Positions 2,091-6,043 of a stretch of DNA of 55,833 nucleotides are shown piece after piece (the stretch's first letter is position 1; each line of letters begins with the position of its first letter). Below the pieces are notes generated by a model. It searched no databases. It worked only from the letters and a program-made list of their open reading frames with translations, and was not told the DNA's origin. Location: contig JAPLDB010000070.1 of assembly GCA_026391975.1 (NCBI GenBank), positions 1 to 55,833 of the forward strand. The letters run 5' to 3'. The translations under genes were made by a program, and so were the position numbers. The DNA is from Bacteroidota bacterium (GTDB taxonomy: Bacteria > Bacteroidota > Bacteroidia > AKYH767-A > 2013-40CM-41-45).

Positions 2091-2609
2091 ATGGAACAAA
2101 CAAATTTTAACCAGATCGTTACTGAGCACTCAACTCCTCTAAAAAGGTTTGCAGTAAAACTCACCCAGGACACAGAAGAAGCACAGGACCTTGTACAGGA
2201 CACCATGCTGAAAGCAATGACCAATGCAGAAAAGTTTCAGGAAGGAACTAACCTGAAAGGCTGGTTGTTTACCATTATGAAAAATATCTTCATCAATAAA
2301 TACCGCAGGGCGATGAAGAGCAAGATATTTAATGATGATACAGATAATCAGTTCTACATTAACTCAGCGTCTATTTCTACCGGTAATGTAGGCGAAGGTT
2401 CATTGGTCATGAAAGATATTACCCAAGCTGTAGGGCAGTTGTCGGATAACCTCCGCACGCCTTTTATGCTGAGTTATACAGGCTACAAGTACGAGGAAAT
2501 CGCCGAACAATTGCAAATCCCTCTCGGTACAGTAAAGGTCCGCATTCACAATGCCAGAAAGGAACTGATGGGTAAACTCAGTACGTATGGCGCCGGGAGA
2601 AGGAAGTGA
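2091..2609 (+). CDS. ECF-type sigma-70 factor
   Basis: Region 2 (AQDLVQDT...LKGWLFTIMKNIFIN) and region 4 (YEEIAEQLQIPLGTVKVRIH). Confidence 0.92.
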   Translation: MEQTNFNQIVTEHSTPLKRFAVKLTQDTEEAQDLVQDTMLKAMTNAEKFQEGTNLKGWLFTIMKNIFINKYRRAMKSKIFNDDTDNQFYINSASISTGNVGEGSLVMKDITQAVGQLSDNLRTPFMLSYTGYKYEEIAEQLQIPLGTVKVRIHNARKELMGKLSTYGAGRRK

Positions 2610-2701
2610 TTTAAATTAATACCGGTTTATTGAATAGGATCTGTAGTAACAAATTTCAGAATGAAATTCCAATAACCGGGTGATTCAATTCTATTTTCAG
2701 A

Positions 2702-3325
2702 TCATTCCTTCTCGTCGTAACTTTTGTAACCAATCTTTTTTCGTGGTGGATTTGGCGGCTGCATCAATTGGCTGCTTTGCTCCGCACGCTGACGCTGACG
2801 CTGGAGCTTTAGCGCAGGTGCCTGAAGCTATGCGAAAGCGATGATGGCTTCGAATAATATTTTTAATTCTTTGTCGTGCTCATTTAACCTACCTCCCAAC
2901 TTACGTTCTAACAGTTCTATTTTCACTGAAATGTCCCTGTTAACAGCAAGCACTTCTGTGATTTTTATAAAGATCTTGACTACCTGTATGCTTGCCTGAA
3001 TGGCAACAGGGCTGTTCAATACATTTGCTGCCATTACTGCTCCATGTTCTGTAAAGGCATATGGCAGATACTGACTGAATTTCAACTTATGGAGGTGGTC
3101 ACAATTTGTGACCACATAATTTTTCTCTTTTTCATTCAACCGGAACATGAACTCCTCAGGGAAGCGGTCAATGTTTCTTTTTACCGCCTGATTGAAAACT
3201 TTAGTTGGAACTCCATAAAATGCTGCAAGGTCAGCATCAACCATCACTCTTTTTCCTCGTAAAACCAAGATGGCATTTCGAACCTTTTCTTCCGGAATGA
3301 TTAATTGTTTTGTCATCATCTTCAA
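2702..3325 (-). pseudogene. ORF6N (KilA-N-like) DNA-binding protein, copy A1, interrupted by a 69-bp in-frame insertion carrying a TAG
   Basis: RGKRVMVDADLAAFYGV and PYAFTEHGAVMAANVLNS motifs. The ORF stops at 2828, but the paralog tail QLMQPPNPPRKKIGYKSYDEKE* resumes in the same frame at 2770-2702. Confidence 0.85.
2774..2842. mobile_element. 69-bp REP-like insertion in ORF6N copy A1
   Basis: Absent from the three paralogs. It contains CCTGCGCTAAAGCTCCAGCG, related to the CCTYCGCCAAGGCTTCG element at 5489 and 50911. Confidence 0.7.
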
Positions 3326-3368
3326 AATATGTTGTTGTTAAAATTTCTAACAATAATTCTTCCATCAT

Positions 3369-3926
3369 TTATTCAATACCATCTTCGTATCTCTTGTACC
3401 CGATCTTTCTTCGTGGCGGATTGGGTGGTTGCATCAGTTGGCGAATTGCTTCAAATAATACTTTTAGTTCTTTGTCGTGCTTACTCAATTTACTTCCCAG
3501 TTTACGTTCTAACAGTTCCATTTTGGCTGCCAGGTCTTTATGCGCAGCAAGTACTTCTCTGATTTTAATAAACATCCTTACGACTTGAATGCTTGCCAGA
3601 ACAGCCACAGCGCTGTTCAAGACATTGGCTGCCATCACTGCGCCATGTTCTGTAAAGGCGTATGGCAAATACTGACTGAACTTCAACTTTCTGAGGTGGT
3701 CGCAATTTGCGACCACATACTCTTTCTCTTTTTTTGTAAGCTGGAACATAAACTCAGCAGGGAAACGATCAGGGTTGCGTTTTACCTGTTCATTCAATCG
3801 TTTGGTTGAGGTTCCATAGAAATCAGCAAGGTCGGCATCAATCATCACTCTTTTCCCTCGTAAAAACAAGATGGCATTGCGAACTTCTTTTTCCTGAATG
3901 ATTAATTGTTTTGTCATCATCTTCAA
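3369..3926 (-). CDS. ORF6N (KilA-N-like) DNA-binding protein, copy A2
   Basis: Same ORF6N motifs; a close paralog of A1 including about 45 bp of upstream sequence (601-bp period). Confidence 0.9.
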   Translation of the reverse strand: MKMMTKQLIIQEKEVRNAILFLRGKRVMIDADLADFYGTSTKRLNEQVKRNPDRFPAEFMFQLTKKEKEYVVANCDHLRKLKFSQYLPYAFTEHGAVMAANVLNSAVAVLASIQVVRMFIKIREVLAAHKDLAAKMELLERKLGSKLSKHDKELKVLFEAIRQLMQPPNPPRRKIGYKRYEDGIE

Positions 3927-4019
3927 AATATGTTGTTTTCGAAATTTCTAAAAAAGATTCTTCAATCTAATATGCGGCGATCTCATCGGTAGTTACGCAG
4001 TTTGAATATTTTTGAAAAA

Positions 4020-4084
4020 CTTTGTGCCTTAGTGTCTTTGTGGCAGATTCTAAGTTATTGCCACTAAGGCACAAAGGCTCGAAG
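4020..4084. repeat. Inverted cluster of degenerate octamers
   Basis: ctttgtgc-cttagtgt-ctttgtgg-ca ... tg-ccactaag-gcacaaag-gctcgaag. Confidence 0.75.
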
Positions 4085-4107
4085 GAAATCAAATCATTAA
4101 AAGCAAT

Positions 4108-4665
4108 TTATACCTTTTTTTGAAACTGAGACACAACCATCTCATCATAGCTTTTATACCCAATCTTTTTTCTTGGCGGGTTGGGCGGTTGCATCAGTTG
4201 TCGGATGGCTTCGAAGATTGTCTCAATGGCTTCGTCATTCTTATCAAGGCGACTTTCTAATTTTTTCAACTGCGCAGCAAGTTCTTTATGTGTTTCAAGT
4301 AGTTTACGCATTCTCACAAAAGTGCGCATGATGTAGATGTTAACCTCTCTTGCCCTTTTGCTTTTCAAAACACCGGAAAGCATAGCAACACCTTGTTCGG
4401 TAAAGGCCATCGGTGCATATCGTGTACCTCCCCATTTTGAGGTGCCAAATTGGCTCCTCAAGTTATCCCACTCACCTGGATTGAGTTCAAACATGAAATC
4501 CCCGGGAAAGATGTCCATGTTCCTTCTCACCGCACGTTTCAATGCTTTAGTCTCAACATCATAAAGTAAAGAGAGCTCAAAATCGAGCATAATTTTTTCC
4601 CCACGGATGAAATAAATCTGCCTGGCAATATTTTCCTCTTTTATTATGAATGTTTGTTTTGTCAC
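4108..4665 (-). CDS. ORF6N (KilA-N-like) DNA-binding protein, copy B1
   Basis: IRGEKIMLDFELSLLYDV and PMAFTEQGVAMLSGVLKS motifs; GTG start. Confidence 0.9.
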   Translation of the reverse strand: MTKQTFIIKEENIARQIYFIRGEKIMLDFELSLLYDVETKALKRAVRRNMDIFPGDFMFELNPGEWDNLRSQFGTSKWGGTRYAPMAFTEQGVAMLSGVLKSKRAREVNIYIMRTFVRMRKLLETHKELAAQLKKLESRLDKNDEAIETIFEAIRQLMQPPNPPRKKIGYKSYDEMVVSQFQKKV

Positions 4666-4804
4666 GGCAGATGTTTAGGAAATTATCAGTGTAGTATCCG
4701 GTGTTTCCTGCCGCTAAATTACTTTGCTAAATATGATTTATAGTCCCGGTAAAAGCAGGATATTATAAAATCCCGTTAATCAGTTAGTAAATTTTCATAC
4801 TATG

Positions 4805-5359
4805 TCAATCCTTCTCATCATAGCTTTTAAACCCAATTTTTTTTCGTGGCGGATCGGGAGGTTGCATTAATTGGCGTATGGCTTCGAAAATTGCATCAAT
4901 GGCTTCGTCATTTTTATCAAGCCGGCTTTCTAGTTTTTTTAGTTGTATGGCAAGTTCCTTGTTTGTATCAATCAGTTTACGCATTCTCACAAAAGTGCGC
5001 ATGATGGAGATATTTACGTCCCGTGCCCGTTTGCTTTTTAAAACACCGGAAAGCATTGCAACACCTTGTTCGGTAAAAGCCATCGGTGCGTATCGGGTGC
5101 CACCCCATTCTTTCTTGCCAGCATTTAAACTTGAGGCCGCAATTTGCGACCTCAAGTTCACCATCTCGTTTGGGGTTAACTCAAACATGAAATCATCCGG
5201 GAAGCTTTTGATATTTCTTCTCACAGCCTCTTTCAACCGTTTTGTTGGAACACAATAGAGTGCTGCTAAATCAAAATCGAGCATTACTTTTTCCCCACGG
5301 ATGAAATAGATCTGTTGAGTAATATTTTCCTCTTTTATTATTAAGGTTTGTTTTGTCAC
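4805..5359 (-). CDS. ORF6N (KilA-N-like) DNA-binding protein, copy B2
   Basis: Close paralog of B1 (694-bp period); the upstream blocks 4666-4774 and 5360-5468 are also duplicated. Confidence 0.9.
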   Translation of the reverse strand: MTKQTLIIKEENITQQIYFIRGEKVMLDFDLAALYCVPTKRLKEAVRRNIKSFPDDFMFELTPNEMVNLRSQIAASSLNAGKKEWGGTRYAPMAFTEQGVAMLSGVLKSKRARDVNISIMRTFVRMRKLIDTNKELAIQLKKLESRLDKNDEAIDAIFEAIRQLMQPPDPPRKKIGFKSYDEKD

Positions 5360-5482
5360 GGCGGAAGTTTAGGAAATTATAATAATTGTATCTGGTGTTT
5401 ATGGCCGCTAAATTACTTTCCATGATATGATTTATAGTCCCGGTAAAAACAGGATATTATAAAATCCCTGTCTCAAATCAAT

Positions 5483-5582
5483 AATCCGCCTCCGCCAAGG
5501 CTTCGGCGGACGAGAGGCTGGATTAATTCCCCGCAGCTTTCTGCGGATTTTTGGTTTCAAGGCTTGCCCTGGGGTTCATACC
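5483..5582. repeat. Cluster of REP-like palindromes
   Basis: TCCGCC-AAGGCTTC-GGCGGA hairpin nested in AATCC...GGATT, followed by CCGCAG-CTTT-CTGCGG. Confidence 0.65.
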
Positions 5583-5662
5583 ACTTGAATTGCAAAAGAC
5601 AGCAACTCAATTTTCCGACTTATTGAAATTTGATTCTTTACATTTGCAGGAAATCACATCAG

Positions 5663-6043
5663 ATGAAAAAAATCCTGACCTGGTCAATAGCCATCATCGT
5701 CGTTGTCCTTTCATTTTTAATTTACTGGAATTACTACAACACCTACAGCGAGGGCAACCGCTCCGGCATCCTGCAAAAATTTTCCAAGAAGGGAAATATT
5801 TTCAAAACCTATGAAGGCGAACTGATCATGAGCAGTATTGCAAGCACAGGGAATGTAACCATTGCTTCAGAAAAATTCTTTTTCTCTGTGACCAGCGACA
5901 GTCTTGCCCAGGTCCTTTTCAACCTGGAAGGCAAACGTGTTACATTGCACTATGAGCAGAAGCGGAAACACTTGCCGTGGAATGGGGAGTCGGATTACTT
6001 TGTGAGCGGGGTGGTGCAGACGGAGAAGGATCCCGTCGAATAA
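5663..6043 (+). CDS. Conserved hypothetical single-TM membrane protein
   Basis: N-terminal TM helix, then YSEGNRSG-LQKFSKKG-IFKTYEGEL. The ATG at 5663 follows TACATTTG at 5639-5646, so it is preferred to the TTG at 5630. Confidence 0.75.
   Translation: MKKILTWSIAIIVVVLSFLIYWNYYNTYSEGNRSGILQKFSKKGNIFKTYEGELIMSSIASTGNVTIASEKFFFSVTSDSLAQVLFNLEGKRVTLHYEQKRKHLPWNGESDYFVSGVVQTEKDPVE

Follow-up and report, generated by a model that had tools for sequence, protein, structure and literature searches.

The 55,833-nt window analysed here (contig JAPLDB010000070.1 of assembly GCA_026391975.1, Bacteroidota bacterium, positions 1 to 55,833) carries four tandem minus-strand genes of the ORF6N family within 2828-5359, which are named A1, A2, B1 and B2 (Table 1). 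The four proteins matched Pfam PF10543 (ORF6N) with 102.4, 104.5, 102.2 and 111.1 bits (expectation value, E, 1.7e-29 to 3.1e-32), where the curated cut-off is 27.8 bits. In A2, the ORF6N domain is followed by a long helix and a PPNPPRRKIGY tail. Within each gene, at the homologous site between the motifs FMFxL and PxAFTExG, lies a DNA palindrome, which is the subject of this study. The four palindromes had been predicted from the letters of the window, and all of them were found in their places, those of A1 and A2 being perfect.

Table 1. ORF6N genes of the window and their palindromic elements (ORF, open reading frame; pLDDT, predicted local distance difference test; k, number of a base pair counted outwards from the centre)
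Feature	Position	Strand	Centre	Arms (complementarity)	Remarks
ORF6N gene A1	2828..3325	-			ORF; PF10543 E 1.7e-29
A1 27-bp element	3092..3118		3105	3095-3104/3106-3115 (100%)	perfect part 3095-3115 (10-1-10)
ORF6N gene A2, full length, 185 aa	3369..3926	-			ORF; PF10543; AlphaFold2 pLDDT 86.9
A2 27-bp element	3693..3719		3706	3696-3705/3707-3716 (100%)	perfect part 3696-3716
ORF6N gene B1, 185 aa	4108..4665	-			ORF; PF10543
B1 27-bp element	4436..4462		4449 (T, coding strand)	4437-4448/4450-4461 (92%)	12-1-12 dyad, one A·A mismatch at k=6
ORF6N gene B2, 184 aa	4805..5359	-			ORF; PF10543; AlphaFold2 pLDDT 82.4
B2 element	5128..5158		5143	5128-5142/5144-5158 (93%)	extended 15-1-15, one T·G mismatch (coding strand)

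The A1 element encodes Y-V-V-T-N-C-D-H-L with its centre at codon position 2, the B1 element L-R-S-Q-F-G-T-S with its centre at codon position 1, and the B2 element N-L-R-S-Q-I-A-A-S-S-L. The paired change that the original prediction had placed in both arms of A1 and A2 can be read directly in the sequence, the k=4 pair being G-C in A2 (Ala GCA/Cys TGC) and A-T in A1 (Thr ACA/Cys TGT). Its further details were borne out as well: the cores of A2 and B2 match at 16 of 17 positions and encode VANCD and SQIAA in different frames, the centre of B1 is flipped, and a 7-aa indel follows the B2 palindrome. The A·A mismatch of B1 was seen again in relatives. When the codons of each gene were shuffled synonymously 100 times, the observed site score was matched by 0 shuffles for B2, 1 for B1, 2 for A2 and 1 for A1. 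Assembled contigs over the four centres listed no alternative letter, contigs being a source from which rare variants are dropped.

In the window's own 3.6-Mb genome (G000), tblastn found five further ORF6N copies or fragments. The strongest palindrome of the gene was at the homologous site in all nine copies or fragments of this genome, and the element on contig C196 has perfect 13-bp arms. For the family at large, loci were gathered with an alignment of six paralogs, 80 each from species genomes, metagenomes and viral contigs, which are the best among 185 to more than 580 confirmed relatives per set. When the open frames of these loci were searched with a profile, 261 genes with both flanking anchors were obtained, 220 of them distinct; the sampled sequences are mutually related and their counts do not represent independent events. 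The best palindrome of the whole gene lay between FMFxL and PxAFTE in 215 of the 220 distinct genes, and the homologous site that had been predicted from four genes thus holds far beyond the window. The element was lost in 5 of the 220 genes, though the segment that hosts it tolerates indels. Among the 80 genome loci 17 named phyla are represented, and the element is found in metagenomes and viral contigs as well. It is likewise present in genes on plasmids of Segatella, Butyrivibrio (Bacillota) and Treponema, including two that encode longer proteins with an extra C-terminal domain.

The element is a fixed 27-bp dyad with the conserved core TCRCAAWTTGYGA. Watson-Crick pairing stood at 68% for k=1 and at 89-98% over k=2-12, then dropped to 77% for k=13 and 38% for k=14. 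Since pairing falls off after k=13, the unit is 13-1-13. Positions k=2, 3, 5 and 6 are conserved in sequence and form the core, and k=4 and k=7-13 vary as pairs. A single-base centre was found in 219 of the 220 elements; of the 214 elements that score at least 7, 132 have A there, 81 have T and 1 has G. Where the centre is asymmetric, either orientation can be seen (AA 29 vs TT 17; AC 14 vs GT 6). The spacing of the half-sites was constant in 229 of 230 intragenic sites; outside genes, 62 sites had the canonical spacing and the nine other spacings together had 20. This is the form expected of an autoregulatory operator, namely a dyad-symmetric duplex site with fixed half-site spacing. In all 69 genes of one type the centre lies exactly 31 nt past the Leu codon of FMFxL; in the other type it lies 33 nt past this codon in 125 of 145 genes. 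The distance from the centre to PxAFTE is variable. Five genes have two tandem family elements within the segment; L107 has one in each frame.

The symmetry of the site was then compared with synonymous-codon shuffles of the 220 genes. The mean site score was 11.2, far above the 4.7 of these controls. None of 100 shuffles reached the observed score in 161 of the genes, and at most 5 of 100 did so in 208. Covariation of the arms across homologs, the other property asked of the family, was present. In 150 distinct 41-mers 91.7% of the pair cells were paired, against 67.3% after shuffling of the columns (reached in 0 of 500), and sliding the partners by 1-3 columns left pairing at only 32.5-41.6%. 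Changes on both sides were seen at 10 of the 13 pairs, with 454 doubly changed cells where 129 were expected. In genes with the RSQ-type frame, Ser TCA is coupled to Val GTG (59 genes) and Ser TCG to Ala GCG (49); in those with the VVANC-type frame, the partners are Ala GCA and Cys TGC (40) or Thr ACA and Cys TGT (26). Crossed pairs numbered 0 in both frames. Because crossed codon pairs are absent, the synonymous choice in one arm predicts the amino acid in the other. Taken together, the codon-shuffle controls, the covariation of the arms and the coupling of synonymous codons to amino acids of the opposite arm show that the constraint acts on the DNA and overrides the peptide throughout the family. 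The central claim of the original prediction, that the DNA symmetry is kept while peptide and reading frame vary, is strongly supported on this scale.

The element did not behave as a structured RNA with G·U tolerance. Among 2568 cells at k=2-13 the coding-strand mismatches were G·T or T·G in 42, A·C or C·A in 53 and other in 90 (hand-summed). The k=4 pairs were GC in 65, AU in 58, CG in 22 and GU in 1, and the G·U intermediate TCG + GTG was present in 0 of 108 genes. In positions 2500-5700 of the window no match to Rfam, which holds curated families only, was found at E up to 1. The lack of a G·U preference, the interchangeable A/T centre, the invariant spacing and the lack of an Rfam match point away from an mRNA hairpin and towards a DNA element with two-fold symmetry.

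The centre falls on codon position 1 in 145 genes, on position 2 in 69 and on position 3 in none. In 161 of the 214 elements the third frame runs into a stop within the 27-mer, and the other two frames are stopped in 4 and 8. On a FastTree tree of the flanks, which is short and noisy, the frame type needs 28 changes, and flank identities are alike within and between the frame types. The two types are not clean clades, a point that is not pressed with short, noisy trees. The palindrome as a junction at which N- and C-terminal halves recombine was considered and dropped. Frame type needed 34 changes on the tree of the N-half and 36 on that of the C-half, against a mean of 53 with shuffled labels, the identities of the two halves correlate weakly (r = 0.31) and no clean chimeras of the halves were found; short, noisy trees may account for all of these results.

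Copies of the element were also found outside the coding site. The strict core occurs at six sites in the window's own genome, four of them coding and two located 30-60 bp upstream of ORF6N genes on contigs C71 and C196. In 21 related genomes it occurs 39 times, against 1 for a reversed control pattern (hand-summed); some of these sites are bare cores without arms and others are true orphans. All loci and the window together (1.43 Mb) contain 320 family palindromes against 2 with a control core, where a few of the 320 are counted twice in loci that overlap. Inside genes there are 271 (261 of them in the +200..+250 bin), within 400 nt upstream 34 (29 of them in -100..0), just downstream 5, and elsewhere 10. 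The element does not have the distribution of a dispersed repeat of the kind of repetitive extragenic palindromic (REP) sequences, miniature inverted-repeat transposable elements (MITE) or Rickettsia palindromic elements (RPE): all six strict cores of the own genome lie in or beside ORF6N genes and the position is fixed. The suggestion of a domesticated palindromic insertion, at least of the dispersed-repeat kind, is not supported, since the element keeps one fixed position and is essentially confined to ORF6N genes.

By strict criteria, 38 upstream copies were found 0-120 bp ahead of 31 of 214 genes, with one or two per gene and, under looser criteria, three in L013. They are 87-100% self-complementary at k=1-12, and A and T centres are nearly equal among them. 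In 7 of the 38 cases, where 1.68 are expected, the arms of an upstream copy agree with those of the internal copy of its gene at no fewer than 9 of 10 positions. On the Butyrivibrio plasmid pCY186 the unusual arms ATCGAGATGCCAA are present at -29 (13/13) and again at +222 (11/13). Contig C71 of G000 offers a clear example of an upstream copy, and one gene of G018 has upstream, internal and downstream copies.

Several extragenic palindromes deserve individual mention. An orphan with 17-nt arms stands between convergent genes in G020 (contig C60 near 18546; L289), and in its arm and left flank it is similar to the coding left arm of the A1 element, as if the relic had grown by one-arm copying. 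On contig C466 of G004 (L281) a solo palindrome stands between the same flanking genes, 3-hydroxyacyl-CoA dehydrogenase-like and thioesterase-like as named from their sequences, that enclose a palindrome and an ORF6N gene on contig C71 of G000 (L003). When the solo palindrome was considered as an excision scar, the occupied G000 site was found to be without a matching right-hand copy. A separate REP-like family is present in G000, consisting of palindromes of about 27 nt centred on GCCTNAGGC with a consensus near CCGTCTCGCCTWAGGCGAGACGG. It has 22 copies with at least 10 of 13 pairs (for example at C217:23621 and C163:17538), and look-alikes stand upstream of ORF6N genes in L034 and L047.

The AlphaFold2 models of A2 and B2 have an alpha/beta N-domain followed by a helix of about 40 residues. 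The stretch encoded by the element contributes to two short, confident helices in the A2 model (block pLDDT 94-98), and in the B2 model it forms the end of a helix and a low-confidence loop (block pLDDT 49-56). The N-domain gave weak fold matches (Z 4.5-6.1) to the granulovirus Orf22 N-domain and to the Dachshund/SKI, Mbp1 APSES and pSK1 Par DNA-binding domains, which weakly suggest that the ORF6N protein may bind DNA. A sequence search of solved structures returned only a designed coiled coil that matches the C-terminal helix, a Foldseek search of the PDB returned nothing at E up to 0.001, and no NCBIfam family was matched. The longer ORF6N relatives are mostly tandem fusions or read-through gene calls. 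The plasmid proteins of Treponema (L295 1483-2379) and Butyrivibrio (L294 1468-2460) consist of ORF6N and an extra C-terminal domain. The extra domain of the Treponema protein has a weak, sub-threshold match to a PLD-like domain (PF13091, E 0.003), and the gene of this protein is flanked by those of a DNA methyltransferase and a restriction endonuclease subunit S.

For the genomic context, 148 neighbouring proteins were scanned, a random choice from 253 candidates with those above 900 aa omitted. They gave 173 Pfam families, none of them common, with ORF6N (6) and HTH_3 (5) as the most frequent. No recombinase, HUH protein or integrase was among the 25 commonest of these families of immediate neighbours. 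Of the 21 related genomes 12 have the ORF6N family, the number of matches per genome ranging from 0 to 9, and the genome of Bacteroides thetaiotaomicron, scanned among the controls, matched PF10543 as well. Two Segatella plasmids, 2955 and 4140 bp long, have only a Rep gene and an ORF6N gene, and records of cultured phages gave only 5 matches. A2 and B2 matched profile PDLC04856 of PADLOC, which stands for the candidate defence system PDC-S05, with E 9.2e-57 and 9.8e-59 over positions 1-176 of 177. In E. coli, one PDC-S05 representative is reported in a preprint to have reduced plating of the phages T7 and T5 by a factor of about 1000 (bioRxiv 10.1101/2024.09.26.614923). It is described there with a RhuM domain, so it may belong to a different branch from A2 and B2, and the passages of that report that were available do not mention a palindrome (bioRxiv 10.1101/2024.09.26.614923).

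In the window, the C-terminal tail of A1 is broken by an insertion of about 72 nt with an in-frame stop, and remnants of the tail reach to about 2705. Positions 2785-2821 (37 nt of this insertion) and 9 nt near 2702 are absent in the close relative G002 and in the contigs of two runs. From the states of the insertion it follows that the conserved QLMQPPNPPRKKIGYK tail is out of reach in the window as well as in G002 and the run contigs. An inverted repeat at 4011-4093 lies between A2 and B1, with perfect 15-nt arms at 4020-4034/4062-4076, and is found at the same place in G002. Compared with 2560-4010 of the window, the array of G002 (contig C36, L296) has B1, the inverted repeat and A1, and no A2. 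A deletion of A2 mediated by the palindromes was considered and dropped, since it is in the 5' regions, where A1 and A2 are homologous, that the junction is found; the difference between the arrays is suggestive of unequal recombination between paralogs in tandem.

The palindrome acts in cis, and it does so as DNA; we infer for it a reader and an effect on expression. Since the element is tied to ORF6N genes, has copies at putative promoters and is accompanied by no constant partner gene, the ORF6N protein is its most economical reader, and negative autoregulation would be the most ordinary purpose for such a site. Our tentative preference, which we hold to be possible though short of probable, is that the palindrome is a self-binding site of the ORF6N/coiled-coil protein for autoregulation, with arms that are kept symmetric by a pairing-dependent process. 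A symmetric ORF6N oligomer would bind the intragenic duplex site and the upstream copies where these are present, and binding, through a roadblock or looping, would repress a solitary gene of the defence-island type. That the outer arms are almost perfectly symmetric would call for pairing from arm to arm, either in a transient hairpin or cruciform or through template-switch correction of quasi-palindromes. Among the three readings that had been offered with the original prediction, an operator for the protein itself fits best, with the upstream copies, the shared unusual arms and the lack of a constant partner as circumstantial evidence. Of the hairpin that was to diversify the segment by template switching, the plausible part is that it keeps the arms alike; nothing shows a role in diversification.

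Several observations weigh against autoregulation by a self-bound site. A strict upstream copy is found at only 31 of the 214 genes and none of the four window genes has one, so a promoter-proximal operator is not general, and repression exerted only from about +215 would be out of the ordinary. The outer arms covary freely, with at least 43 changes at k=4 and 47 at k=11 (FastTree, 202 genes), and the rate of change in the arms is not far below that of the flanking coding DNA. Such a pattern is expected from arm-to-arm pairing and fits bases that are read by a protein less well. In many cases, for instance in L025, L029 and L081, the outer arms of the upstream copy are unlike those of the intragenic copy, each copy being symmetric in itself. 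Relics also keep the palindrome, with perfect 16-bp arms in a pseudogene on C123 and 17-bp arms in the L289 orphan, and binding of a product made in cis could not have maintained these palindromes. Support from the protein side is thin, as the fold matches of the models are weak and the dimer is putative.

The free covariation, an arm divergence near that of the flanks and symmetric sites that differ within a locus mean that a pairing-dependent process is needed beyond a pure operator. Template-switch correction is consistent with the long perfect palindromes in the pseudogene and the orphan. That the element is hardly ever lost, ends sharply at 13 bp and recurs at putative promoters speaks for selection acting on it as well. 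The self-binding reading can be carried one step further, to a self-referential element: the 27-bp dyad would be the putative recognition site of ORF6N and at the same time encode part of the surface that faces the DNA, template switching driven by the hairpin would change both arms and with them these residues in one step, and site and reader would co-diversify into insulated defence paralogs. We regard this extension as very doubtful.

Among the alternatives, a DNA hairpin or cruciform survives best, though we consider it unlikely. The apical part TCRCAAWTTGYGA would be recognised and the covarying lower stem would serve pairing, for recombination, mobility or replication, as hairpins do at the sites of HUH enzymes, integron attC sites and rolling-circle origins. 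A conserved top on a covarying base is the pattern of hairpin sites, and two copies at one locus can differ in their arms while each is self-complementary. A hairpin or cruciform would also suit genes that are solitary, patchy in related genomes (12 of 21, 0-9 matches) and often tandem, the solo palindrome of G004 in the place of a palindrome and gene in G000, the G018 gene flanked on both sides by copies with the same arms, and the Segatella plasmids of 2955 and 4140 bp with only Rep and ORF6N genes. However, a hairpin whose centre is 1 nt cannot form pairs k=1 and k=2; even so, A..T is found at k=2 in 95% of the genes, and the centre is nearly always A or T. The loop length is constant even in the non-coding copies, the neighbours scanned show no recurrent recombinase, HUH protein or integrase, and flanking copies are rare (5 downstream of 320). 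In addition, the boundaries of the copy-number difference between strains in the window array lie in homologous 5' regions and not at the palindromes.

A self-maintaining quasi-palindrome without present function, in which template switching during replication copies changes from arm to arm and drags the peptide along, appears quite unlikely. It would account for the concerted changes of both arms with almost no intermediates (crossed codon pairs in 0 of 174 genes), for the palindromes that persist or lengthen in a pseudogene and an orphan, for the frequent A/T flips of the centre (at least 54 changes on the tree) and for asymmetric centres in both orientations. Whether the centre flips faster than the background was also considered, and this was dropped because four flips at about 90% flank identity proved to be a single event. 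Against a functionless palindrome stand the loss in only 5 of 220 genes over at least 17 phyla despite a segment that tolerates indels, and a sharp edge, which lies at 13 bp whichever frame is read and at 12-13 bp for non-coding copies. The core sequence is conserved, copies recur at putative promoters, and an internal A·A mismatch is kept uncorrected in one subfamily.

It is very unlikely that the palindrome is the site of another trans factor, be it a paralogous ORF6N protein, a phage ORF6N or antirepressor-type protein or a host protein, for control or sensing from outside. Upstream arms are often of another subtype, EVVANCDHL-type genes often having CTTGAGG or TTCAAGG arms upstream, up to 9 paralogs are present per genome, and viral contigs encode relatives with the element. 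Yet the sharing of arms between upstream and internal copies of the same gene is above chance, and nothing but the ORF6N gene itself co-occurs with the site. An mRNA hairpin for processing, stability or translational pausing is extremely improbable: the element is always co-transcribed with the gene, its covariation is strong and upstream copies could belong to the 5' untranslated region, the Butyrivibrio copy standing between a TGnTATAAA-like box (read by eye) and the ribosome-binding site, but G·U is not above A·C (42 vs 53), the G·U intermediate TCG + GTG is found in 0 of 108 genes, the centre is symmetric with interchangeable A and T, a 1-nt loop is impossible and Rfam gave no match at E up to 1.

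Sites for a binder inside the gene of that binder are known from the iterons of the lambda origin in gene O, parS in spo0J/parB, operators in purR and pac in terminase genes. The ORF6N element resembles them as a cis site in the coding sequence of its putative binder, with which it is co-inherited. Unlike them, it is a single 27-bp dyad at a position fixed family-wide, in many phyla and two reading frames, with covarying arms. pSK1 Par binds sites that adjoin its own gene. With pSK1 Par, RacA and MerR-type winged-helix proteins the ORF6N protein may share the layout of an N-terminal alpha/beta DNA-binding domain and a long helix, a weak likeness (Z 3.8-4.6) in a range that the tool calls common; there is no sequence relationship, and the ORF6N site is intragenic. 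Template-switch mutagenesis at quasi-palindromes comes from the E. coli literature, where it is known as a mutational hotspot. It accounts for changes that are copied from arm to arm and for inversion of the centre, but is not known as the means by which an element stays conserved through deep evolutionary time. Rickettsia palindromic elements, REP sequences and MITE are dispersed repeats inserted in many unrelated genes. Where they lie in coding genes, such insertions are likewise palindromic DNA translated within a protein, whereas the ORF6N element stands at one site in one family and is not dispersed.

No description of the element was found in the literature on ORF6N (titles and abstracts, among the matches listed), on PDC-S05, on KilA-N sites or on intragenic autoregulatory palindromes, and the 13-mer core strings gave only an unrelated match. 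A fixed dyad that runs through a whole family in two frames and overrides the peptide appears to be new, while cis sites within the gene of their binder are known.

In this family a non-coding constraint overrides the protein sequence throughout, to the point that residues as unlike as Leu and Ser are swapped. The uncharacterised and very widespread ORF6N family, which matches the candidate defence system PDC-S05, thereby gains a concrete cis element. Conserved 'protein motifs' such as LRSQIATS and EVVANCDHL may be shadows of DNA elements. If the ORF6N proteins bind these sites, the family would provide a natural set of orthogonal protein-site pairs, and if the arms are kept alike by pairing-dependent correction, a mutational mechanism would be preserving a functional element.

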